A DNA stretch of 11,860 nt, taken from a virus (taxonomy: Duplodnaviria > Heunggongvirae > Uroviricota > Caudoviricetes). The stretch lies in IMG/VR virus record IMGVR_UViG_2703718842_000002, positions 1-11,860 of that record; one strand, written 5' to 3'. The position numbers and the translations under genes were made by a program. How positions within the stretch are numbered: position 1 is the stretch's first letter; every line of letters begins with the position of its first letter. Positions 1-11,860 of this stretch are shown in pieces. The notes under the pieces are model-generated. The model was given only the letters and a program-made list of their open reading frames with translations. It had not been told where the DNA came from and ran no database searches.

Positions 1-237
1 CGTGTTGAGGCCAACGCCCATAATGCGGGCTGTTGCCCGGCATCCAACGCCATTCATGGCCATATCAATGATTTTCTGGTGCGTACCGGGTTGAGAAGCG
101 GTGTAAGTGAACTGCAGTTGCCATGTTTTACGGCAGTGAGAGCAGAGATAGCGCTGATGTCCGGCGGTGCTTTTGCCGTTACGCACCACCCCGTCAGTAG
201 CTGAACAGGAGGGACAGCTGATAGAAACAGAAGCCAC
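1..237 (-). CDS. insA: IS1 InsA (transposition regulator / N-terminal part of the InsAB' transposase), 3'-partial in window
   Basis: Minus-strand frame beginning at the GTG whose reverse complement is 235-237 translates [79 protein letters not shown] with no stop before the window edge. This frame is missing from the supplied ORF track because it has no in-window stop. It contains the zinc-finger-like CxxC...CxxC pair of InsA. Confidence 0.85.
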
Positions 238-269
238 TGGAGCACCTCAAAAACACCATCATACACTAA

Positions 270-292
270 ATCAGTAAGTTGGCAGCATCACC
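270..292 (-). repeat. IS1 terminal inverted repeat (insA-proximal end)
   Basis: Window 270-292 atcagtaagttggcagcatcacc is the reverse complement of the ~23-bp IS1 terminal repeat GGTGATGCTGCCAACTTACTGAT. Confidence 0.8.
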
Positions 293-1484
293 GGATGCCT
301 GGCGAAATAACCAGGCAAATAAACCCAAAGCGCATAAAAAGACCGAAGCGGAAAAAACAGAAGATATTTATAAACGGCTGATTAAACAGCAAAAAGAACA
401 AATAGCACTGGCAGGGCAGAATACTGAACTGGCTAAGATGAAATATCAGGTCAGTCAGGGCGAATTATCAACCCTGTCAGAAGCGCAGAAAAAAACGCTT
501 TTGCAGAATGCAGCACTCATCGACCAGAAAAAGATTCGTGAGCAGCTTGCTGCGTATGAAAGCAGCCTGGCGGACAGTAATGCCAGTACCCGGGCGTCTA
601 ACGACGCGCAGTTACTGGGATATGGTGAAGGCTCACGGATGCGTGAACGACTCCAGGAAATGTGGAGTATCCGGCATGAGTTTGAGCAGAAAAATAACGA
701 GCTGCTGAGACAGTATCAGGCCGGAGAAATTGAAGAAGCCCTGTGGAAACAGGAGAAAGAACTGAATAAAAAATATCTGGAAGAGCGTCTCAGCGATCAG
801 CAGGATTATTATGCAAAGGCCGATGCTTTACGTAATAACTGGAATGCAGGACTCCAGGAGGGGCTGACCAACTGGGCAGACAGTGCCACCGATTATGCTT
901 CGCAGGCGGCAGATGCTGTCGTTTCCACTATGGACGGACTGGTATCAAATATTTCCGATGCACTGGCCGGAAATGTTGTGGACTGGAGAAACTGGGGGAG
1001 TTCAATTCTCCAGGAAGTTTCAAAAATTCTGATGAATGCGGCCATTGTTAACGGACTGAAGTCACTCTCCGGTGCCGGAGGGTGGCTTGGTACGGTCGGC
1101 GGATGGATTTCGGGGGCGGTGGCAAACGCAAAAGGTGGTGTTTACACATCAGCAAATCTGAGTGCTTACAGTAACACTATTGTGGATACACCGACGTATT
1201 TTGCTTTTGCGAAAGGTGCCGGGTTGATGGGCGAGGCCGGGCCTGAAGCAATCATGCCACTGACACGGGCAGCGGACGGCTCTCTTGGGGTCAGGGCCAT
1301 TGGAAATGTGAATGGTGGCGGTGGATTTGTTTATTCTCCCGTGTATCACATCAGCATTCAGAATCAAGGGAGCAATGGCGAGATAGATGCGCGCTCAGCC
1401 AGGGGACTGGTGGATCTGATCGACAGCAGGGTTGTGTCAATTATGCAGTCATCGCGTCGGGATGGAGGATTGTACAGTGCCTGA
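293..1484 (+). pseudogene. H: Tail tape-measure protein (lambda H-like), C-terminal ~397 codons, 5'-truncated by the IS1 insertion
   Basis: Track ORF 279-1484; its first 14 nt lie inside the IS1 inverted repeat and it uses a TTG directly after an in-frame TAA at 267-269, so the true N-terminus is absent. The translation has a tape-measure C-terminus (...TPTYFAFAKGAGLMGEAGPEAIMPLTRAADGSLGVRAIG...) and sits immediately upstream of M-L-K-I-J. Stop TGA at 1482-1484. Confidence 0.8.
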
Positions 1485-1818
1485 GCCTGAAGTTTTTAAC
1501 TGGATCCCCCGTGAGGGGATGGAGACGACACGAAAGCCATCAGTTATTACGGTAAAGTTTGGTGACGGATATGAACAGCGACGGGCTGGTGGCCTGAATG
1601 CGGATCTGAAAACGTTTAAACCGGTATTTCGTGTCACAGATGAATATTCCCGTGCCGCGCTGGACAGTTTTTTATCCCGTCATGCCGGGATTCGTGCTTT
1701 TTTGTGGCGTCCGCCAAAACACAACAGGACTGTCCGGGTTGTCTGCAGGGAGTGGAGCATTTCGGATAATGCCATGTATACCGATTTTAACTGTACCTTT
1801 GAAGAGGTCACTCACTGA
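1477..1818 (+). CDS. M: Minor tail protein M (lambda gpM-like)
   Basis: Translation ...EVFNWIPREGMETTRKPSVITVKFGDGYEQRRAGGLNADLKTF...AFLWRPP... aligns with lambda gpM (MKTFRWKVKPGMD...VRFGDGYSQRAPAGLNANLKTY...). Start chosen at GTG 1477, preceded by GGAGGA at 1464-1469 with 7-nt spacing. ATG 1462 and the track's TTG 1432 are in-frame alternatives. Overlaps the H stop and ends in an ATGA overlap with L. Confidence 0.85.
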   Translation: MPEPEVFNWIPREGMETTRKPSVITVKFGDGYEQRRAGGLNADLKTFKPVFRVTDEYSRAALDSFLSRHAGIRAFLWRPPKHNRTVRVVCREWSISDNAMYTDFNCTFEEVTH

Positions 1819-2516
1819 TGCAGGATATACAGCAGGAAACACTCAATGAGTGCACTAAAACGGAGCAATCCGCGCTGGTCGTGCTCTGGGAAATTGATCT
1901 GACAGAGGTCGGCGGAGAACGTTATTTTTTCTGTAATGAGCAGAACGAAAAAGGTGAGTCGGTCACCTGGCAGGGGCGACAGTATCAGGCGTACCCTATT
2001 CAGGGAAGCGGATTTGAGATGAACGGCAAAGGAGCCAGTGCAAGACCAACGCTGAAAGTCTCTAACCTGCACGGCATGGTCACCGGCATAGCGGAAGACC
2101 TGCAGAGTCTGGTCGGCGGAACGGTGGTCAGGCGTAAGGTTTACGCCCGTTTTCTGGATGCGGTGAACTTCGTCAACGGAAACAGTGACGCCGATCCGGA
2201 GCAGGAGGTAATCAGCCGCTGGCGCATTGAGCAGTGCAGCGAACTGAGCGCGGTCAGTGCCTCCTTTGTACTGTCCACGCCGACGGAAACGGACGGCGCT
2301 GTTTTTCCGGGCCGCATCATGCTGGCTAATACCTGCACCTGGACCTATCGCGGTGATGAGTGCGGTTATCACGGTCCGGCGGTCGCGGATGAATATGATC
2401 AGCCGACGTCCGATATCACGAAGGATAAATGCAGCAAATGCCTGAGTGGCTGTAAGTTTCGCAATAACGTCGGCAACTTTGGCGGCTTCCTTTCCATTAA
2501 CAAACTTTCGCAGTAA
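1818..2516 (+). CDS. L: Minor tail protein L (lambda gpL-like), tail-tip protein with a C-terminal cysteine cluster
   Basis: 232-aa ORF, the same length as lambda gpL, with a near-identical N-terminus (MQDIQQETLNECTKTEQSALVVLWEIDLTEVGGERYFFCNEQNEKGE...). C-terminal Cys residues (CTWTYRGDECGYHG...DKCSKCLSGCKF) match the known Fe-S-binding cluster of gpL. Its ATG overlaps the TGA of M. Confidence 0.92.
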   Translation: MQDIQQETLNECTKTEQSALVVLWEIDLTEVGGERYFFCNEQNEKGESVTWQGRQYQAYPIQGSGFEMNGKGASARPTLKVSNLHGMVTGIAEDLQSLVGGTVVRRKVYARFLDAVNFVNGNSDADPEQEVISRWRIEQCSELSAVSASFVLSTPTETDGAVFPGRIMLANTCTWTYRGDECGYHGPAVADEYDQPTSDITKDKCSKCLSGCKFRNNVGNFGGFLSINKLSQ

Positions 2517-2521
2517 ATCCC

Positions 2522-3265
2522 ATGACAGAGACAGAATCAGCGATTCTGGCGCACGCCCGGCGATGTGCGCCAGCGGAGTCGTGCGGCTTCGTGGTGAGAA
2601 CGCCGGAAGGGGAAAGATATTTTCCCTGCGTGAATATCTCCGGTGAGCCGGAGGCGTATTTCCGGATGGCTCCGGAGGACTGGCTGCGGGCAGAAATGCA
2701 GGGTGAGATTGTGGCGCTGGTCCACAGTCACCCCGGTGCTCTGCCCTGGCTGAGTGAGGCCGACCGGCGGCTGCAGGTGCAGAGTGATTTGCCGTGGTGG
2801 CTGGTCTGCCGGGGGGCGATTCACAAGTTCCGCTGTGTGCCACATCTTACCGGGCGGCGCTTTGAGCACGGGGTGACGGACTGTTACACGCTGTTCCGGG
2901 ATGCTTACCATCTGGCGGGAATTGAGATGCCTGATTTTCATCGTGAGGATGACTGGTGGCGTCACGGTCAGAATCTCTATCTGGATAATATGGAGGCAAC
3001 GGGGCTGTATCAGGTGCCGTTGTCAGCGGCGCAGCCGGGCGATGTGCTGCTGTGCTGTTTTGGTTCATCGGTGCCGAATCATGCCGCTATTTACTGCGGC
3101 GACGGCGAGCTGCTGCACCATATTCCTGAACAGCTGAGCAAACGAGAGAGGTATACCGACAAATGGCAGCGACGCACACACTCCCTCTGGCGTCACCGGG
3201 CATGGCACGCATCTGCCTTTACGGGGATTTGCAACGATTTGGCCGCCGCATCGACCTTCGTGTGA
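2522..3265 (+). CDS. K: Tail assembly protein K (lambda gpK-like); MPN/JAMM-type domain plus NlpC/P60-type cysteine peptidase domain
   Basis: 247-aa ORF beginning 6 nt after the L stop. JAMM-like motif E...HSHPGALPWLSEAD (H-x-H-x7-S-x2-D) lies at about 2722-2763. C-terminal half carries an NlpC/P60-like Cys/His pair (GVTDCYTLFRDAYH...NHAAIYCGDG). The true start could be an internal Met (e.g. M49). The 3' end overlaps I by 103 nt in another frame. Confidence 0.85.
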   Translation: MTETESAILAHARRCAPAESCGFVVRTPEGERYFPCVNISGEPEAYFRMAPEDWLRAEMQGEIVALVHSHPGALPWLSEADRRLQVQSDLPWWLVCRGAIHKFRCVPHLTGRRFEHGVTDCYTLFRDAYHLAGIEMPDFHREDDWWRHGQNLYLDNMEATGLYQVPLSAAQPGDVLLCCFGSSVPNHAAIYCGDGELLHHIPEQLSKRERYTDKWQRRTHSLWRHRAWHASAFTGICNDLAAASTFV

Positions 3266-3810
3266 AAACGGGGGCCGAAGCCATCCGGGCGCTGGCCATG
3301 CAGATCCCGGCGTTTCGTCAGAAACTGAATGAGGGCTGGTATCAGGTGCGCATTGCCGGGCGTGATGCAGGCGAAAACGAATTATCAGCCCGTCTTAATG
3401 AGCCGCTGAAAAATGGTGCCGTGATCCACATCGTTCCGCGTCTTGCGGGAGCAAAAAGTGGCGGTGTGTTTCAGGCGGTGCTGGGGGCGGCGCTGATTGC
3501 GGTGGCATGGTGGAACCCTGTGGGCTGGCTGGGTGCCGCGGCTGTATCGGGCATGTATGCGGCAGGGGCCAGTATGATCCTGGGCGGAGTGGCGCAGATG
3601 CTGGCACCGAAAGCCAGGACGCCCACGGCAGCAAGTACAGATAACGGCAAACAGAACACCTATTTCTCGTCACTGGATAACATGGTTGCCCAGGGCAATG
3701 TTCTGCCTGTTCTGTACGGGGAAATGCGCGTGGGGTCACGCGTGGTTTCTCAGGAGATCAGCACGGCAGACGAAGGGGACGGTGGTCAGGTTGTGGTGAT
3801 TGGTCGCTGA
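3163..3810 (+). CDS. I: Tail assembly protein I (lambda gpI-like)
   Basis: Translation MAATHTLPLASPGMARICLYGDLQRFGRRIDLRVKTGAEAIRALA...NGKQNTYFSSLDNMVAQGNVLPVLYGEMRVGSRVVSQEISTADEGDGGQVVVIGR closely matches lambda gpI at both termini. The Gly/Ala-rich hydrophobic middle is also typical. Confidence 0.88.
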   Translation: MAATHTLPLASPGMARICLYGDLQRFGRRIDLRVKTGAEAIRALAMQIPAFRQKLNEGWYQVRIAGRDAGENELSARLNEPLKNGAVIHIVPRLAGAKSGGVFQAVLGAALIAVAWWNPVGWLGAAAVSGMYAAGASMILGGVAQMLAPKARTPTAASTDNGKQNTYFSSLDNMVAQGNVLPVLYGEMRVGSRVVSQEISTADEGDGGQVVVIGR

Positions 3811-3828
3811 TGCAAAATGTTTTATGTG

Positions 3829-3856
3829 AAACCGCCTCCGGGCGGTTTTGTCGTTT
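3829..3856 (+). terminator. Stem-loop with a U-rich tail between I and J (terminator-like hairpin or RNA-stabilising structure)
   Basis: aaaccgcc (3829-3836), loop tccg, ggcggttt (3841-3848), then tgtcgttt. An 8-bp perfect stem. Because J lies downstream in the same operon this is more likely a partial terminator or processing/stability element than a full stop. Confidence 0.35.
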
Positions 3857-3870
3857 ATGGAGCGTGAGGA

Positions 3871-6800
3871 ATGGGTAAAGGCAGCAGTAAGGGGCATACC
3901 CCGCGCGAAGCAAAGGACAACCTGAAGTCCACGCAGTTGCTGAGTGTGATCGATGCCATCAGCGAAGGGCCGGTTGAAGGTCCGGTGGATGGATTAAAAA
4001 GCGTGCTGCTGAACAGTACACCGGTGCTGGACAGTGAGGGGAATACCAATATCTCCGGCGTCACGGTGGTGTTCCGGGCCGGTGAGCAGGAGCAGACACC
4101 GCCGGAGGGATTTGAATCCTCCGGCTCCGAGACGGTGCTGGGTACGGAAGTGAAATACGACACGCCGATCACCCGGACCATCACGTCGGCAAACATTGAC
4201 CGACTGCGCTTTACCTTCGGCGTGCAGGCACTGGTGGAAACCACCTCAAAGGGGGACAGGAATCCGTCGGAAGTCCGCCTGCTGGTTCAGATCCAGCGTA
4301 ATGGCGGCTGGGTGACGGAAAAAGACATCACCATTAAGGGCAAAACCACCTCGCAGTATCTGGCCTCGGTGGTGGTGGGTAACCTGCCGCCGCGCCCGTT
4401 CAATATCCGGATGCGCAGGATGACGCCGGACAGCACCACAGACCAGCTGCAGAACAAAACGCTCTGGTCGTCATACACCGAAATCATCGATGTGAAACAG
4501 GGCTACCCGAACACGGCACTGGTCGGCGTGCAGGTGGATTCGGAGCAGTTCGGCAGCCAGCAGGTGAGCCGTAATTATCATCTGCGCGGGCGCATTCTGC
4601 AGGTGCCGTCGAACTATAACCCGCAGACGCGGCAATACAGCGGTATCTGGGACGGAACGTTTAAACCGGCATACAGCAACAACATGGCCTGGTGTCTGTG
4701 GGATATGCTGACCCATCCGCGCTACGGCATGGGGAAACGTCTTGGTGCGGCGGATGTGGATAAATGGGCGCTGTATGTCATCGGCCAGTACTGCGACCAG
4801 TCAGTGCCGGACGGCTTTGGCGGCACGGAGCCGCGCATCACCTGTAATGCGTACCTGACCACACAGCGCAAGGCGTGGGATGTGCTCAGTGATTTCTGCT
4901 CGGCGATGCGCTGTATGCCGGTATGGAACGGGCAGACGCTGACGTTCGTGCAGGACCGACCATCAGATAAGGTGTGGACCTATAACCGCAGTAATGTGGT
5001 GATGCCGGATGATGGTGCGCCGTTCCGCTACAGCTTCAGCGCCCTGAAGGACCGCCATAATGCCGTTGAGGTGAACTGGATTGACCCGGACAACGGCTGG
5101 GAGACGGCGACAGAGCTTGTTGAAGATACGCAGGCCATTGCCCGTTACGGTCGTAATGTCACGAAGATGGATGCCTTTGGCTGTACCTGCCGGGGGCAGG
5201 CACACCGCGCCGGGCTGTGGCTGATTAAAACGGAGCTGCTGGAGACGCAGACCGTGGATTTCAGCGTGGGTGCCGAAGGGCTTCGCCATGTACCGGGCGA
5301 TGTCATTGAAATCTGTGATGATGACTATGCGGGGATCAGCACCGGCGGGCGCGTGCTGGCGGTGAACAGCCAGACCCGGACGCTGACGCTCGACCGTGAA
5401 ATCACGCTGCCATCCTCCGGCACCACGCTGATAAGCCTGGTTGACGGAAGTGGCAATCCGGTCAGCGTGGAGGTCCAGTCCGTCACCGACGGCGTGAAGG
5501 TGAAAGTGAGCCGGGTTCCTGACGGCGTTGCCGGATACAGCGTGTGGGGGCTGAAGCTGCCGACGCTGCGCCAGCGCCTGTTCCGCTGTGTGAGTATCCG
5601 TGAGAACGACGACGGCACGTATGCCATCACTGCCGTGCAGCATGTACCGGAGAAAGAAGCCATCGTGGATAACGGGGCGCACTTTGACGGTGACCAGAGC
5701 GGCACGGTGAATGGTGTCACGCCGCCAGCAGTGCAGCATCTGACCGCCGAAGTCACCGCAGACAGCGGGGAATATCAGGTGCTGGCGCGATGGGACACGC
5801 CGAAGGTGGTGAAGGGCGTGAGCTTTATGCTTCGCCTGACCGTGGCAGCGGATGACGGCAGTGAGCGGCTGGTCAGCACGGCCAGGACGACGGAAACCAC
5901 TTACCGCTTCACACAACTGGCTCTGGGGAACTACAGGCTGACAGTCCGGGCAGTAAATGCATGGGGACAGCAGGGCGATCCGGCGTCGGTATCGTTCCGG
6001 ATTGCCGCACCGGCAGCGCCGTCGCGGATTGAGCTGACGCCGGGCTATTTTCAGATAACCGCCACGCCGCATCTTGCCGTTTATGATCCGACGGTACAGT
6101 TTGAGTTCTGGTTCTCGGAAACGCGGATTACCGATATCAGGCAGGTTGAAACCACAGCCCGCTACCTTGGTGCGGGGCTGTACTGGATAGCCGCCAGTAT
6201 CAATATCAAACCGGGCCATGATTATTACTTTTATATCCGCAGTGTGAACACCGTTGGCAAATCGGCATTCGTGGAGGCTGTTGGTCAGCCGAGTGATGAC
6301 GCATCCGGCTATCTGGATTTTTTCAAAGGCGAGATAGGGAAAACCCATCTGGCTCAGGAGCTGTGGACGCAGATTGATAACGGTCAGCTTGCGCCTGACC
6401 TGGCTGAAATCAGGACGTCCATTACGGATGTCAGCAATGAAATCACACAGACCGTCAATAAGAAACTGGAAGACCAGAGTGCGGCAATTCAGCAGATACA
6501 GAAGGTTCAGGTTGATACAAATAATAACCTGAACAGCATGTGGGCTGTGAAGCTGCAGCAGATGCAGGACGGACGCCTTTATATCGCGGGTATTGGTGCC
6601 GGTATTGAGAACACCCCTGACGGCATGCAGAGTCAGGTGCTGCTGGCGGCGGACAGGATTGCGATGGTTAATCCTGCGAATGGCAACACAAAACCGATGT
6701 TTGTTGGTCAGGGCGATCAGATATTCATGAACGACGTGTTCCTGAAACGCCTGACGGCTCCCACCATTACCAGCGGTGGAAATCCACCGGCATTTTCCCT

Positions 6801-7353
6801 GACACCGGACGGGCGACTGACGGCGAAAAATGCGGATATCAGTGGCAGTGTGAATGCGAACGCCGGGACGCTCAACAATGTCACGATTAATGAGAACTGT
6901 CAGATTAAGGGGAAACTGTCAGCCAATCAGATTGAAGGCGATATTGTCAAAACGGTCAGCAAGTCTTTCCCCCGCACGAACAGTTATGCCAGTGGCACCA
7001 TCACGGTAAGAATCAGTGATGATCAGAAATTTGACCGGCAGGTCATGATACCGCCAGTGTTATTCCGCGGTGGTAAGCATGAGAATTTCAACAGTAATAA
7101 CCAACAGTCATACTGGTATTCAACCTGCCGGTTAAGAGTGACCCGCAATGGTCAGGAGATTTTTAATCAGTCCACGACGGATGCTCAGGGCGTATTTTCC
7201 TCCGTTATAGATATGCCTGCCGGACAGGGGACGCTGACACTGACATTCACCGTATCTTCATCAGGAGCGAATAACTGGACACCAACAACCAGTATCAGCG
7301 ATCTGCTGGTTGTGGTGATGAAAAAATCCACAGCAGGTATCAGTATCAGCTGA
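3871..7353 (+). CDS. J: Host-specificity / central tail-fibre (tail tip) protein J (lambda gpJ-like)
   Basis: 1160-aa ORF. N-terminal ~800 aa are near-identical to lambda J as I recall it ([34 protein letters not shown]...). GAGGA precedes the ATG. Stop TGA at 7351-7353. An internal patch and the C-terminal ~150 aa are diverged and lower in G+C (see findings). Confidence 0.95.
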
Positions 7354-7370
7354 ATTTTATAACCCAGAAC

Positions 7371-7397
7371 GGGCGTCAGAAATGACGCCTTTTTTAT
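7371..7397 (+). terminator. Rho-independent terminator-like hairpin downstream of J
   Basis: ggcgtca (7372-7378), loop gaaa, tgacgcc (7383-7389), followed immediately by tttttt (7390-7395). Confidence 0.6.
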
Positions 7398-7419
7398 TGC
7401 AGAAAAGCGAGAGGTAATT

Positions 7420-8019
7420 ATGCGTAAAGTTTGTGCAGCAATTTTGTCCGCAGCCATCTGTCTGGCCGTATCCGGTGCGCCTGCATGGGCGTCTGAACAT
7501 CAGTCCACGCTGAGCGCGGGGTATCTTCATGCCCGGACGAACGTTTCCGGCAGCGATGATCTGAACGGGATTAACGTGAAATACCGTTATGAGTTTACGG
7601 ACACGCTGGGAATGGTGACGTCATTCAGCTATGCAGGAGACAAGAATCGCCAGCTTACCCGTTACAGCGATACCCGCTGGCATGAAGATTCCGCGCGTAA
7701 CCGCTGGTTCAGCGTGATGGCGGGGCCGTCTGTGCGCGTGAATGAATGGTTCAGCGCGTATGCGATGGCGGGTGTGGCTTACAGCCGCGTGTCGACTTTC
7801 TCCGGGGATTATCTCCGCGTAACTGACAACAAGGGGAAAATGCACGATGTGCTGACCGGAAGTGATGACGGTCGCCACAGCAACACGTCTCTGGCGTGGG
7901 GGGCTGGCGTGCAGTTTAACCCGACCGAATCCGTGGCCATTGATATTGCTTATGAAGGCTCCGGCAGTGGCGACTGGCGCACTGACGGTTTCATCGTGGG
8001 GGTCGGTTATAAATTCTGA
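7420..8019 (+). CDS. lom: Lom-family outer-membrane beta-barrel protein (Ail/Lom/PagC/OmpX family), moron gene
   Basis: 199 aa. N-terminal signal peptide [24 protein letters not shown] followed by S. C-terminus ...[29 protein letters not shown] essentially matches lambda Lom. Conserved [14 protein letters not shown] and SAYAMAGVA strands are present. RBS GAGAGG lies 5-6 nt upstream of the ATG. Located between J and stf as in lambda. Confidence 0.9.
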
Positions 8020-8045
8020 TTAGCCAGGTAACACAGTGTTATGAC

Positions 8046-8073
8046 AGCCCGCCGGTTAAGGCGGGCTTTTTTG
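8046..8073 (+). terminator. Rho-independent terminator-like hairpin downstream of lom
   Basis: agcccgcc (8046-8053), loop ggttaa, ggcgggct (8060-8067), then ttttt (8068-8072). Confidence 0.6.
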
Positions 8074-8083
8074 TGGGGTGAAT

Positions 8084-11000
8084 ATGGCAGTAAAGATTTC
8101 AGGTGTACTGAAAGACGGCACAGGAAAACCGGTACAGAACTGCACAATCCAGCTGAAAGCAAAACGTAACAGCACCACGGTGGTGGCGAACACGGTGGCC
8201 TCAGAAAATCCGGATGAAGCCGGGCGTTACAGCATGGACGTTGAGTACGGTCAGTACAGCGTTATTCTGTTGGTGGAAGGCTTCCCGCCATCGCATGCCG
8301 GGACCATCACCGTGTATGAAGACTCACAACCGGGTACGCTGAATGATTTTCTCGGTGCCATGACGGAGGATGATGTCCGTCCGGAGGCACTGCGCCGTTT
8401 TGAACTGATGGTGGAAGAGGTGGCGCGTAACGCGTCCGCGGTGGCACAGAACACGGCAGCCGCGAAGAAGTCAGCCAGCGATGCCAGCACATCAGCCCGT
8501 GAGGCGGCAACCCATGCGACTGATGCTGCAGGCTCAGCACGCGCAGCCAGCACGTCAGCCGGACAGGCCGCGTCGTCGGCTCAGTCAGCATCTTCCAGCG
8601 CAGGAACAGCATCAACAAAGGCCACTGAAGCATCAAAAAGTGCTGCCGCCGCAGAGTCTTCAAAAAGCGCGGCAGCCACCAGTGCCGGTGCAGCGAAAAC
8701 GTCAGAAACGAATGCCGCAGCATCACAAAAATCTGCGGCCACTTCTGCATCCACCGCGACCACGAAAGCGTCAGAAGCTGCCACCTCAGCCCGGGATGCG
8801 TCGGCTTCAAAAGTGGCGGCAAAATCATCAGAAACGAGCGCAGCCTCGAGCGCCGGCATTGCAGCTTCCTCGGCAACGGCGGCAGGAAATTCCGCGAAGG
8901 CCGCAAAAACGTCTGAGACGAATGCGGATAACAGCGCACAGGCGGCAGCAGACTCACAAACTGCATCGGCAAACTCCGCGACAGCAGCCAAAAAATCAGA
9001 AACCAACGCGAAAAATAGTGAGGCAGCAGCAAAGGTCAGCGAAACCAACGCTAAAGCGTCAGAGAACAAGGCGAAAGAATATCTCGACAAGGTCGGGGGA
9101 CTCGTCAGCCCGATGACGCAATACGATTGGCCTGTTGTTACTGCTAGTGAGTCTCTTTACATCAAGATCGCGAAACTTTCCGATCCTGGAACCAGCAGAA
9201 GTCATGTAACGCTAATGGTTACTAACGCTGGTAACTACGGCTCCCCTTACGGAAACATTGACTTTATCGAGATCTCGGCGCGCGGTCTGCCTTCTTTGCT
9301 TAGTGCGGATAATGTTTCTCGTCATCTGAGTATACGCCGCTTAGGGTCAACCGGGCTGACCGATAACAACCAGATGCGTTACGGCCTGGTTAAAGGTGAC
9401 GGCTTTATTGAGGTTTGGGCATTCCAGGGTGCGTTTATTAACGACGCAAAGGTTGCGGTGCTGGCGCAGACGGCACGCACGGAATTATACATTCCAGACG
9501 GATTTGTTAAGCAAACCGCCGCGCCTTCTGGATATATTGAAGGCAACGTTGTAAGGATTTACGACCAGGTAAACAAGCCGACTAAAGCAGATTTGGGTCT
9601 TTGTAATGCTATGCTTACAGGCGCTTTCGGTCTTGGCGGTAGCGGGATAGCAACAAACGGCAAGATGAGCGATGTAGAGATCTTAAAAGCTCTGCGTGAC
9701 AAAGGTGGTCATTTCTGGCGCGGTGATAAGCCGACCGGAAGCACGGCGACCATTTATAGCCACGGTTCTGGTATATTCTCGCGGTGCGGCGATACGTGGT
9801 CAGCGATCAATATCGACTACTCAACCGCGAAGATTAAGATCTATGCCGGCAACGATGCCCGGTTTAACAACGGGACTTTTAGCGTCAATGAGCTATACGG
9901 CTCGGCAAACAAGCCGTCGAAATCGGATGTTGGACTTGGCAACGTAACGAACGATGCGCAGGTAAAAAAAACCGGCGATACAATGACCGGTGACTTGACA
10001 ATCAAAAAAGGTACACCGTCAGTCTTCCTGCGGGCAGACAGTGGAGTCACCGCTTTGCGGTTTTATACTGGCGATAACACAGAGCGCGGCATAATCTATG
10101 CTGGTCCTAACACTGATTCGCTTGGCGAAGTTCGCATCAGGGCAAAGACAGCAGGGGGGACATCAGGAGGGGATCTTGTTGTTCGTCACGACGGGAGGGT
10201 TGAAGTCCGTGATCTCACAGTAGCGTATAAAATTAAAAGCAGAACGATTGAGATTGCAAATACCGACACTGACTCATCGGCAACTACGCTCAGCATCTAT
10301 GGAGTACAGCACACGCCATTGGTTTTAACGCGTTCTGGTTCTTCTGAAAATGTGTCCATTGGGTTTAAGTTAGACAATGTGAACCCAAAGTATCTTGGAA
10401 TTGATACTAATGGGGATCTGGCTTTTGGTGAGAGTCCTGATCAGAAACAAAACAGCAAATTGATCACGCAAGCGAAACTCGACAAGGGATTAACGATTGG
10501 TGGTCAACTGGCTTTCAAAGGTACGACAGCGTTTTCAGCCGCTGCTACGTTCAGTGCCGGGATAGCAGGAGCCATCGAGCCGGAAGCCATTGACGGCCGG
10601 ACTATTGATTTAAACGACTTGATTATTGCTAATACAGAAGCTGGATCCGTTAAATACTATCAATGCAAAACTGTCGCAGGTGGTGCAAATATTACCAATA
10701 AGCCTGACGGCGTAAGCGGTAACTTTTTGGTTCGTGTAGAGTCGATTCGTAAGACTACGGGATCAGATTATGCGAACATGCAAACGCTGATTAACAGCGA
10801 CACAAAACGTATATACGTTCGCTTTGTTGTTAATGGAAACTGGACAGCGTGGAGTCAGGTTGTTGTTTCCGGATGGAATCAGGATGTAACCGTCAGGTCG
10901 TTAACCTCGACGACTCCATCAAAATTAGGTGGCGGGCGGATTGATGTGCTTGGAAGTACGTCAGATTATGGCAGCATGAATTGTACCGTTCGTGGTGTTG

Positions 11001-11860
11001 ATAGCACTGGAACCAATTCGGCGTGGTCGGTAGGCACATCAGAAAGCACAGGCAAAATGTTGTTCCTGAAAAACCACAGAAGCAGCGCTCAAGTGCTGTT
11101 AAATGGCGATGATGGAGCGGTTCAACTACTAAGTGGCACTGTTAACGGTGCTACAGCGCAGGCGCTAACCATCAACAAAGATGAGGTTAACTCAACTGCC
11201 GATTTAGTAATTAGAAAACAAACAGGGACTGGCAATCGTTTTGCTTTACTTAATTCAGGTAATTCAGAACTACCAGTTAGTATCAGGGTGTGGGGTTCCA
11301 GTACTCGACAAAACGTTTTTGAGGTTGGCACGTCTGCTGCGTATCTGTTTTATGCGCAAAAAACAACAGACGGGCAAAACCTTACTGTAAACGGAAGTGT
11401 TAACTGCACCACACTGAATCAGTCATCAGACCGCAGACTGAAAGAAAATATCGAGATTATCGATAACGCGACTGACGCAATCCGCAAAATTAATGGATAC
11501 ACATACACGCTCAAGGAGAATGGGGCACATTGCGCCGGGGTTATAGCCCAGGAAGTTGAAGAGGCCATCCCGGAGGCCGTTGGTTCATTCATCCATTACG
11601 GTGAAGAGTTGCAAGGTCCGACCGTTGACGGCAACGAGCTACGCGAAGAAACGCGCTATCTTAATGTTGACTACGCCGCCGTGACGGGCTTACTTGTTCA
11701 GTTCGCCCGTGAAACAGATGATCGCGTTACCGCGCTGGAAGAGGAAAACACAACGCTACGTCAAAATCTGGCAACAGCAGACACCCGGATCAGCACTCTG
11801 GAAAATCAGGTAAGCGAACTGGTTGCACTTGTCCGGCAGTTAACAGGAAGCGAACATTGA
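8084..11860 (+). CDS. stf: Side tail fibre protein: lambda Stf-like N-terminal anchor + Ala/Ser-rich repeat stalk + divergent distal fibre module + C-terminal intramolecular-chaperone (peptidase S74-type) domain
   Basis: Track ORF 8078-11860 begins at a GTG; ATG at 8084 gives MAVKISGVLKDGTGKPVQNCTIQLKAKRNSTTVVANTV...SMDVEYGQYSVIL..., which matches the lambda Stf N-terminus, and GGGG sits 6 nt upstream. Stop TGA at 11858-11860 is the last codon in the window. Confidence 0.9.
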   Translation: MAVKISGVLKDGTGKPVQNCTIQLKAKRNSTTVVANTVASENPDEAGRYSMDVEYGQYSVILLVEGFPPSHAGTITVYEDSQPGTLNDFLGAMTEDDVRPEALRRFELMVEEVARNASAVAQNTAAAKKSASDASTSAREAATHATDAAGSARAASTSAGQAASSAQSASSSAGTASTKATEASKSAAAAESSKSAAATSAGAAKTSETNAAASQKSAATSASTATTKASEAATSARDASASKVAAKSSETSAASSAGIAASSATAAGNSAKAAKTSETNADNSAQAAADSQTASANSATAAKKSETNAKNSEAAAKVSETNAKASENKAKEYLDKVGGLVSPMTQYDWPVVTASESLYIKIAKLSDPGTSRSHVTLMVTNAGNYGSPYGNIDFIEISARGLPSLLSADNVSRHLSIRRLGSTGLTDNNQMRYGLVKGDGFIEVWAFQGAFINDAKVAVLAQTARTELYIPDGFVKQTAAPSGYIEGNVVRIYDQVNKPTKADLGLCNAMLTGAFGLGGSGIATNGKMSDVEILKALRDKGGHFWRGDKPTGSTATIYSHGSGIFSRCGDTWSAINIDYSTAKIKIYAGNDARFNNGTFSVNELYGSANKPSKSDVGLGNVTNDAQVKKTGDTMTGDLTIKKGTPSVFLRADSGVTALRFYTGDNTERGIIYAGPNTDSLGEVRIRAKTAGGTSGGDLVVRHDGRVEVRDLTVAYKIKSRTIEIANTDTDSSATTLSIYGVQHTPLVLTRSGSSENVSIGFKLDNVNPKYLGIDTNGDLAFGESPDQKQNSKLITQAKLDKGLTIGGQLAFKGTTAFSAAATFSAGIAGAIEPEAIDGRTIDLNDLIIANTEAGSVKYYQCKTVAGGANITNKPDGVSGNFLVRVESIRKTTGSDYANMQTLINSDTKRIYVRFVVNGNWTAWSQVVVSGWNQDVTVRSLTSTTPSKLGGGRIDVLGSTSDYGSMNCTVRGVDSTGTNSAWSVGTSESTGKMLFLKNHRSSAQVLLNGDDGAVQLLSGTVNGATAQALTINKDEVNSTADLVIRKQTGTGNRFALLNSGNSELPVSIRVWGSSTRQNVFEVGTSAAYLFYAQKTTDGQNLTVNGSVNCTTLNQSSDRRLKENIEIIDNATDAIRKINGYTYTLKENGAHCAGVIAQEVEEAIPEAVGSFIHYGEELQGPTVDGNELREETRYLNVDYAAVTGLLVQFARETDDRVTALEEENTTLRQNLATADTRISTLENQVSELVALVRQLTGSEH
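8430..9090 (+). repeat. Low-complexity Ala/Ser/Thr-rich coding repeats within stf (degenerate K-x-SETNA-type units)
   Basis: Translation is dominated by A/S/T/K with recurring KTSETNAAASQKSAATSAS, KTSETNADNS, KKSETNAKNSE, KVSETNAKASENKAKE. G+C is very high (about 65% by hand count at 8461-8520). This bias also produces long spurious ORFs on both strands. Confidence 0.55.
11426..11857 (+). other. C-terminal intramolecular chaperone / auto-proteolysis domain of the tail fibre (endosialidase-chaperone type, peptidase S74-like)
   Basis: Domain starts at the motif S-D-R-R-L-K (Ser codon 11426-11428, Lys codon 11441-11443), matching the S-D-x-x-x-K Ser/Lys dyad signature. The following ~140 aa (ENIEIIDNATDAIRKINGYTYTLKENG...YLNVDYAAVTGLLVQFARE...LEEENTTLRQNLATADTRISTLENQVSELVALVRQL) end in a heptad-like coiled-coil segment. 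Confidence 0.7.

Follow-up and report, generated by a model that had tools for sequence, protein, structure and literature searches.

The stretch of DNA analysed here (the window) covers positions 1 to 11,860 of IMG/VR record IMGVR_UViG_2703718842_000002, a virus placed in the Caudoviricetes, and it ends with an intact side tail fibre gene, stf (8084..11860, + strand). We recognised the gene from its open reading frame (ORF) and from its place after J and lom. It runs uninterrupted from the ATG at 8084 to the stop codon at 11858-11860, with an in-frame GTG 6 bases earlier at 8078. Its 1258 codons plus stop give a protein of 1258 aa, not the 1259 aa counted in an earlier note on this DNA; lambda Stf is 774 aa long. 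The lambda-type anchor, the stalk, the distal break with lambda, the C-terminal chaperone and the drop in G+C are all far beyond chance. Given the evidence set out below, we think it very probable that the protein is a lambdoid side tail fibre of exchangeable modules, in which a lambda-type anchor precedes a shaft of the T5 pb1 type and a self-cleaving S74 chaperone.

The N-terminal part is clearly that of a lambda side tail fibre. Residues 1-134 (8084..8485) match the whole profile of PF08400, the prophage tail fibre N-terminal domain (Pfam, E 7.2e-72, 240 bits). Within them, residues 1-94 (8084..8365) match PDB 9e7m, a lambda tail fibre chain whose structure was solved with cryo-EM, at E 6e-52, with 87 of 94 residues identical (~93%, by hand count of the alignment). 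This is the collar domain by which Stf docks on the tail tip; its role around the gpV/gpM junction and the domain limits of lambda Stf have been described previously (PMC12617516). Residues 102-348 (8387..9127) form an Ala/Ser/Thr-rich stalk that, by BLASTP and composition, corresponds to the proximal trimeric coiled coil of lambda, and homology to lambda ends with it. Residues 135-348 contain 33% Ala, 21% Ser and 11% Thr, and residues 1-348 taken together are 75% identical to lambda orf-401 (BLASTP). The likeness to lambda Stf seen earlier in the first ~115 residues and the Ala/Ser-rich stalk is thus borne out. The two fibres share their gene place after J and lom, the collar (~93%) and the Ala/Ser-rich proximal coiled coil (75%), and the fibre described here presumably docks on the tail tip as four trimers, as lambda Stf does. 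Two ORFs lie antisense within the stalk region, at 8307-9032 (- strand, 241 aa) and 8581-9090 (- strand, 169 aa). They resemble the historical 'orf206b' opposite stf in the lambda record and are most likely a by-product of codon composition.

Everything past residue 348 differs from lambda Stf. When lambda orf-314 was compared with the window protein by BLASTP, the sole alignment was weak and lay within the Ala/Ser stalk (21% identity, E 2e-5), and lambda Tfa gave no match at all. Nothing significant was found when both were searched by tblastn against the whole window in six frames. The window protein has no HxH motif, compared with eight in lambda orf-314. The earlier note was therefore right that a lambda-like distal region and its His-rich repeats are missing. 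Similarity to lambda DNA (87%) stops at window position 8925. The base composition changes as well, as had also been noticed: G+C is 0.571 for residues 1-348, with a third-codon-position value (GC3) of 0.54, and 0.482 for residues 349-1258 (GC3 0.465), while the neighbouring genes L, K, I, J and lom have GC3 values of 0.63-0.68. A module boundary relative to lambda does exist, and BLASTP places this left-hand exchange joint near residue 348 instead of the ~340 first proposed.

The distal fibre was called foreign, and it is indeed unrelated to lambda, but it is not an orphan. Residues 234-958 (8783..10957) have their homologue in the shaft of pb1, the L-shaped tail fibre of T5, with 57% identity to residues 108-819 of P0124, a protein of 1396 aa. 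P0124 aligns with crystal chain 4uw8 of T5 pb1 at 872 bits over 427 residues, and we therefore take it to be T5 pb1 itself or a near-identical relative. Over the same residues, identity is 60% with the long tail fibre from Salmonella Tequintavirus GEC_vB_N5 and 53% with the one that Drexlerviridae phage K50PH164C1 carries as its tail fibre, and the shaft matches phrog_24369 at E 5e-289. In a search of 1.84 billion cluster representatives (E <= 1e-30), 89 proteins carry pieces of the distal region, and these stand behind at least five different N-terminal anchors. One such N-terminus, MAITKIILQQ, was considered as that of a Stx podophage fibre; this assignment was rejected, as it is the T5-type pb1 N-terminus.

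Several modules can be distinguished along the shaft. The first conserved beta-rich module, D1 (WPVxT...KIAKL...NIDFIE), occupies residues 349-505 (9128..9598) and is followed by a second, D2 (GHFWR...HGSGIFSRCGDT), at residues 521-608 (9644..9907), for which model confidence is low to moderate. A profile of residues 349-610 compared with PDB sequences gave nothing significant. The shaft then opens with the fibre motif NKPSKSDVGLGNVTNDAQVKKTGDTMTGDL in residues 609-835 (9908..10588). Residues 641-840 are the most variable block of the protein, with 38-65% identity to the fibres of the phages Ayreon and vB_EcoS-640R1 (640R1). A knob domain (DLNDL...NITNKP...W..W) lies at residues 836-935 (10589..10888) and may have a lectin-like fold of the kind seen in the R-type pyocin fibre PA0620 (6CL6/6CU2). 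The structural model of knob and tip (residues 836-1258) gave weak Foldseek matches, among them fibres of R-pyocins that bind lipopolysaccharide (LPS), and none of these reached E 1e-3. The sole match in an NCBIfam scan, to SMC, is spurious.

Beyond the knob, residues 941-1114 (10904..11425) form a distal tip that is probably the receptor-binding end. Its last ~55 residues carry a motif of the T4 gp34 type (WG..R..VFEV...FYAQ), and their profile matches gp34 residues 960-1016 at E 2e-8; the C-terminal region of T4 gp34 is also the top Foldseek match for the tip (above E 1e-3). Residues 934-1258 are 77% identical to the Stf of phage mEp460. A receptor-binding tip like that of T5 was sought and rejected. 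The BLASTP alignment with pb1 stops at pb1 residue 819, so that the pb1 bullet (residues 970-1263) has no detectable counterpart in the window protein, and 4uw7 and 4uw8 were absent from the profile and fold searches with the tip. The likeness to pb1 is thus confined to the shaft and the chaperone: coiled coil, D1, D2, shaft and knob, the S74 C-terminus and the Ser...Lys (+5) spacing are alike. The two fibres differ in their attachment end, which is of T5 type in pb1 and a lambda collar here, and in the bullet with which pb1 binds polymannose O-antigen.

The protein ends in an S74 intramolecular chaperone at residues 1115-1258 (11426..11857). PF13884 (Peptidase_S74, chaperone of endosialidase) matches residues 1115-1166 with 60.1 bits against a cut-off of 22 (Pfam). 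As the first homologue search returned 120 near-identical E. coli entries, it was replaced by profile queries from distant representatives, and the chaperone profile was built from 24 diverse homologues of residues 1095-1258. Against solved domains, this profile matches gp37 of phage S16 (6f45, 1.9e-17), human MYRF (7dc3, 5.7e-11), the T5-type L-shaped fibre 8hqz_d (3.4e-6) and the Bacillus-phage neck appendage 3gud (0.006). An SDxxxK motif is aligned in all four, with the qualification that the deposited chain of 7dc3 lacks the Ser at the first position and 8hqz_d lacks the Asp at the second. Ser1115 hardly varies among the 24 homologues, and Asp1116 and Lys1120 do not vary at all (S21, D22 and K26 of alignment A2). 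A C-terminal coiled coil covers residues ~1197-1254, seen as a helix in the AlphaFold2 (AF2) model (its residues 362-419), and Pfam coiled-coil matches fall at 1215-1256.

T5 pb1 is cleaved between Thr1263 and Ser1264; the serine is activated by Lys1269, and the S1264A substitution blocks cleavage (PMC4690869). The cleavage-site sequences, NTSDARLK in pb1 and NQSSDRRLK in the window protein, have the same Ser/Lys spacing. Self-cleavage is therefore predicted before Ser1115, between codons 1114 and 1115 (nucleotides 11425 and 11426). It would release a 16.0 kDa acidic fragment from a mature fibre of 115.5 kDa. The C-terminal chaperone that had been proposed from the sequence is confirmed by the Pfam match and the Ser1115/Lys1120 pair, and the predicted fragment is slightly larger than the ~15 kDa suggested with it.

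The window's last base is that of the stf stop codon, and the downstream context was taken from relatives. The closest is a prophage adjoining potB in E. coli Ecol_AZ147 (L003), to which window positions 288-11860 are 99.86% identical. There, 37 nt past the stf stop, a startless ORF fragment shares 79% identity with residues 147-194 of lambda Tfa; RefSeq labels it 'tail fiber assembly protein, incomplete, missing N-terminus'. An equal tfa stump (~45-48 codons) is found at an equal distance in Ayreon, mEp460 and PhiR70_1, and none of these four carries an intact tfa after stf. The expectation of a different downstream arrangement with no separate Tfa gene is thus upheld in all four relatives. 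Given that the stump is shared at the same distance, the right-hand exchange joint lies inside tfa. The segment between stf and potB (L003 15826-17005) contains two separate tfa 3' stumps, a frameshifted DinI fragment and, on the opposite strand, an intact class I SAM-dependent methyltransferase gene. It is a patchwork from earlier rearrangements at the prophage end.

The fibre was initially read as a mosaic fusion. The joint with lambda-type sequence is real, and the fusion is not a one-off. The Stf of Ayreon is colinear with the window protein over its full length at 82.7% amino-acid identity, which places the window fibre in an established mosaic family. The 640R1 fibre is 88% identical over residues 1-1101. 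By BLASTP, mEp460 shares residues 1-410 and 934-1258 and PhiR70_1 shares residues 1-410 and 1083-1258, the N-terminal segment being near-identical only to ~320 in both. By sliding identity, the five fibres compared are all 88-100% identical over residues 1-320; from ~325 onward, those of mEp460 and PhiR70_1 diverge, with other middle modules, and the chaperone is common to all complete sequences. The Stf proteins of Ayreon, 640R1, mEp460 and PhiR70_1 differ from the window protein only block-wise, and this pattern is the usual fine-grained mosaicism of tail fibres.

The family is widespread in E. coli. Of 5426 complete genomes, 304 have a copy that spans at least 80% of the gene, and 5025 have at least the conserved N-terminal part; Stf-like loci number a median of two and up to 14 in E. 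coli genomes. An assembly chimera was considered and is ruled out by the 304 complete genomes and by independent phage genomes that are colinear. The exact window-protein sequence was not on record when looked up, the nearest entries being 4 residues off. Among the 15 base differences from Ecol_AZ147 over the 3777-base gene, 13 fall in the first 510 bases (window 8084-8590), which suggests a patch copied by gene conversion from a different Stf-type gene of a prophage.

The fibre is already known, as it is present in RefSeq and in sequenced phages, and the architecture and mechanism are well described for related fibres. The gene is annotated as a side tail fibre in Ayreon, mEp460 and 640R1, and NCBI proteins that differ by 4-8 residues are called 'peptidase S74' or 'prophage tail fiber N-terminal domain-containing protein'. 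RefSeq (PGAP) splits the gene in two relatives (L003 12001-15777 and L004 6001-9780) into an 'incomplete' pseudogene and a 'pyocin knob domain-containing S74 family peptidase'. Given that the copies in L003 and L004 have neither stop nor frameshift, the split is an annotation artefact.

In the window itself, the genes follow the order L, K, I, J, lom and stf, as established through the 99.86% match to L003. By correspondence with the annotated L003, stf directly follows J (3871-7353) and lom (7420-8019); the Ecol_AZ147 annotation runs from the tape measure and an M-like protein through L, K, I, J and Lom to stf. A terminator-like hairpin followed by a T-run lies between lom and stf (8046..8075, + strand), with a stem at 8046-8067 that has seven G-C pairs, followed by TTTTTGTGGG, and a terminator is annotated at the equivalent place in Ayreon and mEp460. 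Another terminator-like hairpin is found after J, at 7371-7390, so that lom is bracketed by the pair at 7371-7390 and 8046-8067, as it is in annotated relatives. If so, stf would presumably be expressed from the late transcript only by read-through. In J, G+C falls from ~0.62 to ~0.50 over the last ~400 codons, the 3' third of the gene (window ~6000-7250), which suggests that the receptor-binding end of this central fibre is another swapped-in module. Rfam and tandem-repeat scans gave nothing relevant.

We propose a working model for the fibre. The collar (residues 1-94) would clamp the fibre onto the tail tip at the gpV/gpM junction, as in Ur-lambda, and following the lambda model twelve copies would make up four trimeric fibres. 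Three chains would join into the Ala/Ser-rich coiled-coil stalk (~102-348). Past this point, lambda's hinge and its gp37-like, Tfa-dependent distal rod would be replaced by the T5 pb1-type shaft with D1, D2 and the knob. The distal tip after the shaft is most likely the binder of the primary, reversible receptor, and J would carry out the irreversible step. The S74 chaperone, the last 144 residues, would nucleate trimer folding of the distal beta-structure and then cut itself off between Ser1114 and Ser1115, with Ser1115 activated by Lys1120, exposing the tip. Since folding would be self-contained, Tfa would not be required, and the recombination that installed the distal module would have removed all of tfa except the 3' stump. 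An engineered lambda-K1F Stf chimera, whose chaperone is of this kind, is functional on lambda particles (PMC11338833). In that chimera (Brodel et al. 2024), as here, a lambda Stf N-terminus is joined to a foreign receptor-binding protein that bears an S74 domain. The difference is that the chimera was fused at lambda Stf residue 528 to an endosialidase, whereas the natural joint here is at ~348 and leads into what is very probably a non-enzymatic fibre.

Whether this particular copy is ever used is a separate matter. Bases 1..287 of the window (- strand) come from the end of an IS1A element, with 100% identity to the copies on thousands of plasmids, and they interrupt the prophage tape-measure gene. 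The window matches L003 only from base 288, and the junction 287/288 lies inside the tape-measure gene, which is intact in L003. With IS1 in this gene, the prophage is probably unable to build its own tails, though stf is intact. The gene could accordingly be an intact-looking leftover in a defective prophage, giving no functional fibre from this genome. We consider this possible but doubtful. In its favour, the IS1A end has entered a gene that the nearest relative keeps whole, and the prophage sits at a chromosome end beside potB, with tfa stumps and a frameshifted DinI downstream. On the other hand, the 3.8 kb ORF is free of stops and frameshifts, the nearest database relatives depart from the distal 910 residues at one or two positions at the most (4-8 residues overall in full-length copies), and the plaque-forming phages Ayreon and mEp460 carry the same fibre. 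The IS1 insertion may also be recent. In any case, such decay would concern the status of this copy and not the identity of the gene. It is also conceivable, though we regard it as highly unlikely, that the fibre of the defective prophage is used in trans, mounting on the tails of another inducible prophage and widening its host range by phenotypic mixing. The idea is drawn from three observations: the ORF is intact, IS1 splits the tape-measure gene, and the collar is conserved, collar and stalk (1-320) showing at least 88-100% identity between many lambdoid prophages that reside together.

For the modular fibre with its pb1-type shaft and S74 chaperone, our leading guess is that the receptor is a surface glycan such as O-antigen or LPS, with a chance that we put at about even or a little better. 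By analogy, T5 pb1 binds polymannose O-antigen (PMC4690869), non-depolymerase fibres of Webervirus with this chaperone self-cleave and bind O-antigen (PMC13463945), and Drexlerviridae fibres that combine a coiled coil with an intramolecular chaperone have been linked to O-antigen (PMC11990801). The fibre could instead work as described but recognise an outer-membrane protein with its tip. In lambda, Stf has OmpC as its receptor (PMC12617516), and no similarity of the tip to the mannose-binding domain of T5 pb1 could be detected. We nevertheless think a protein receptor rather unlikely, given that the fold matches of the knob and tip model include LPS-binding R-pyocin fibres and that characterised fibres pairing a coiled coil with this chaperone, those of Webervirus and T5, bind O-antigen, with the Drexlerviridae ones linked to it, although these are analogies that may not extend to this tip. 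Recognition of a receptor in the way that lambda recognises OmpC is likewise unlikely. That the protein is a tailspike-like depolymerase of the endosialidase or lyase type, degrading capsule or O-antigen, is very unlikely.

Several observations weigh against the modular fibre as we describe it, or against parts of it. The monomer AF2 models are mediocre, with mean predicted local distance difference test (pLDDT) scores of 67 and 65, and no Foldseek match reached E 1e-3. The solved T5-type fibre 8hqz_d was matched through the chaperone only, and 4uw7 and 4uw8 did not appear in the fold searches. As the tip bears no likeness to the pb1 bullet, the receptor class is not transferable from T5. Nor does an S74-type chaperone imply glycan binding, because the S16 gp37 fibre (6f45) uses a separate adhesin to bind a protein receptor. 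With the tape-measure gene split by IS1, the window fibre may never be assembled into a virion. Finally, our literature searches gave no paper characterising a lambdoid Stf with an S74 domain, and none with experiments on the Ayreon, 640R1, mEp460 or PhiR70_1 fibres.

Overall, the analyses support the original interpretation in its essentials, namely a module boundary, a distal part unrelated to lambda, an S74 chaperone with a Ser/Lys pair, and a tfa reduced to a stump in relatives. As a discovery this carries little weight, given that the exchange of tail fibre modules and C-terminal chaperones that cut themselves off are both textbook knowledge in the phage field. The splitting of an intact gene in RefSeq is an annotation error worth being aware of. 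Its use in practice is real, if modest, as the locus provides a natural and widespread case of a lambda Stf anchor joined at ~348 to a distal fibre that is autonomous in its chaperone, with the conserved tfa stump marking the right-hand recombination joint. The joint near residue 348 also offers a ready fusion point for engineered lambda-based delivery particles.

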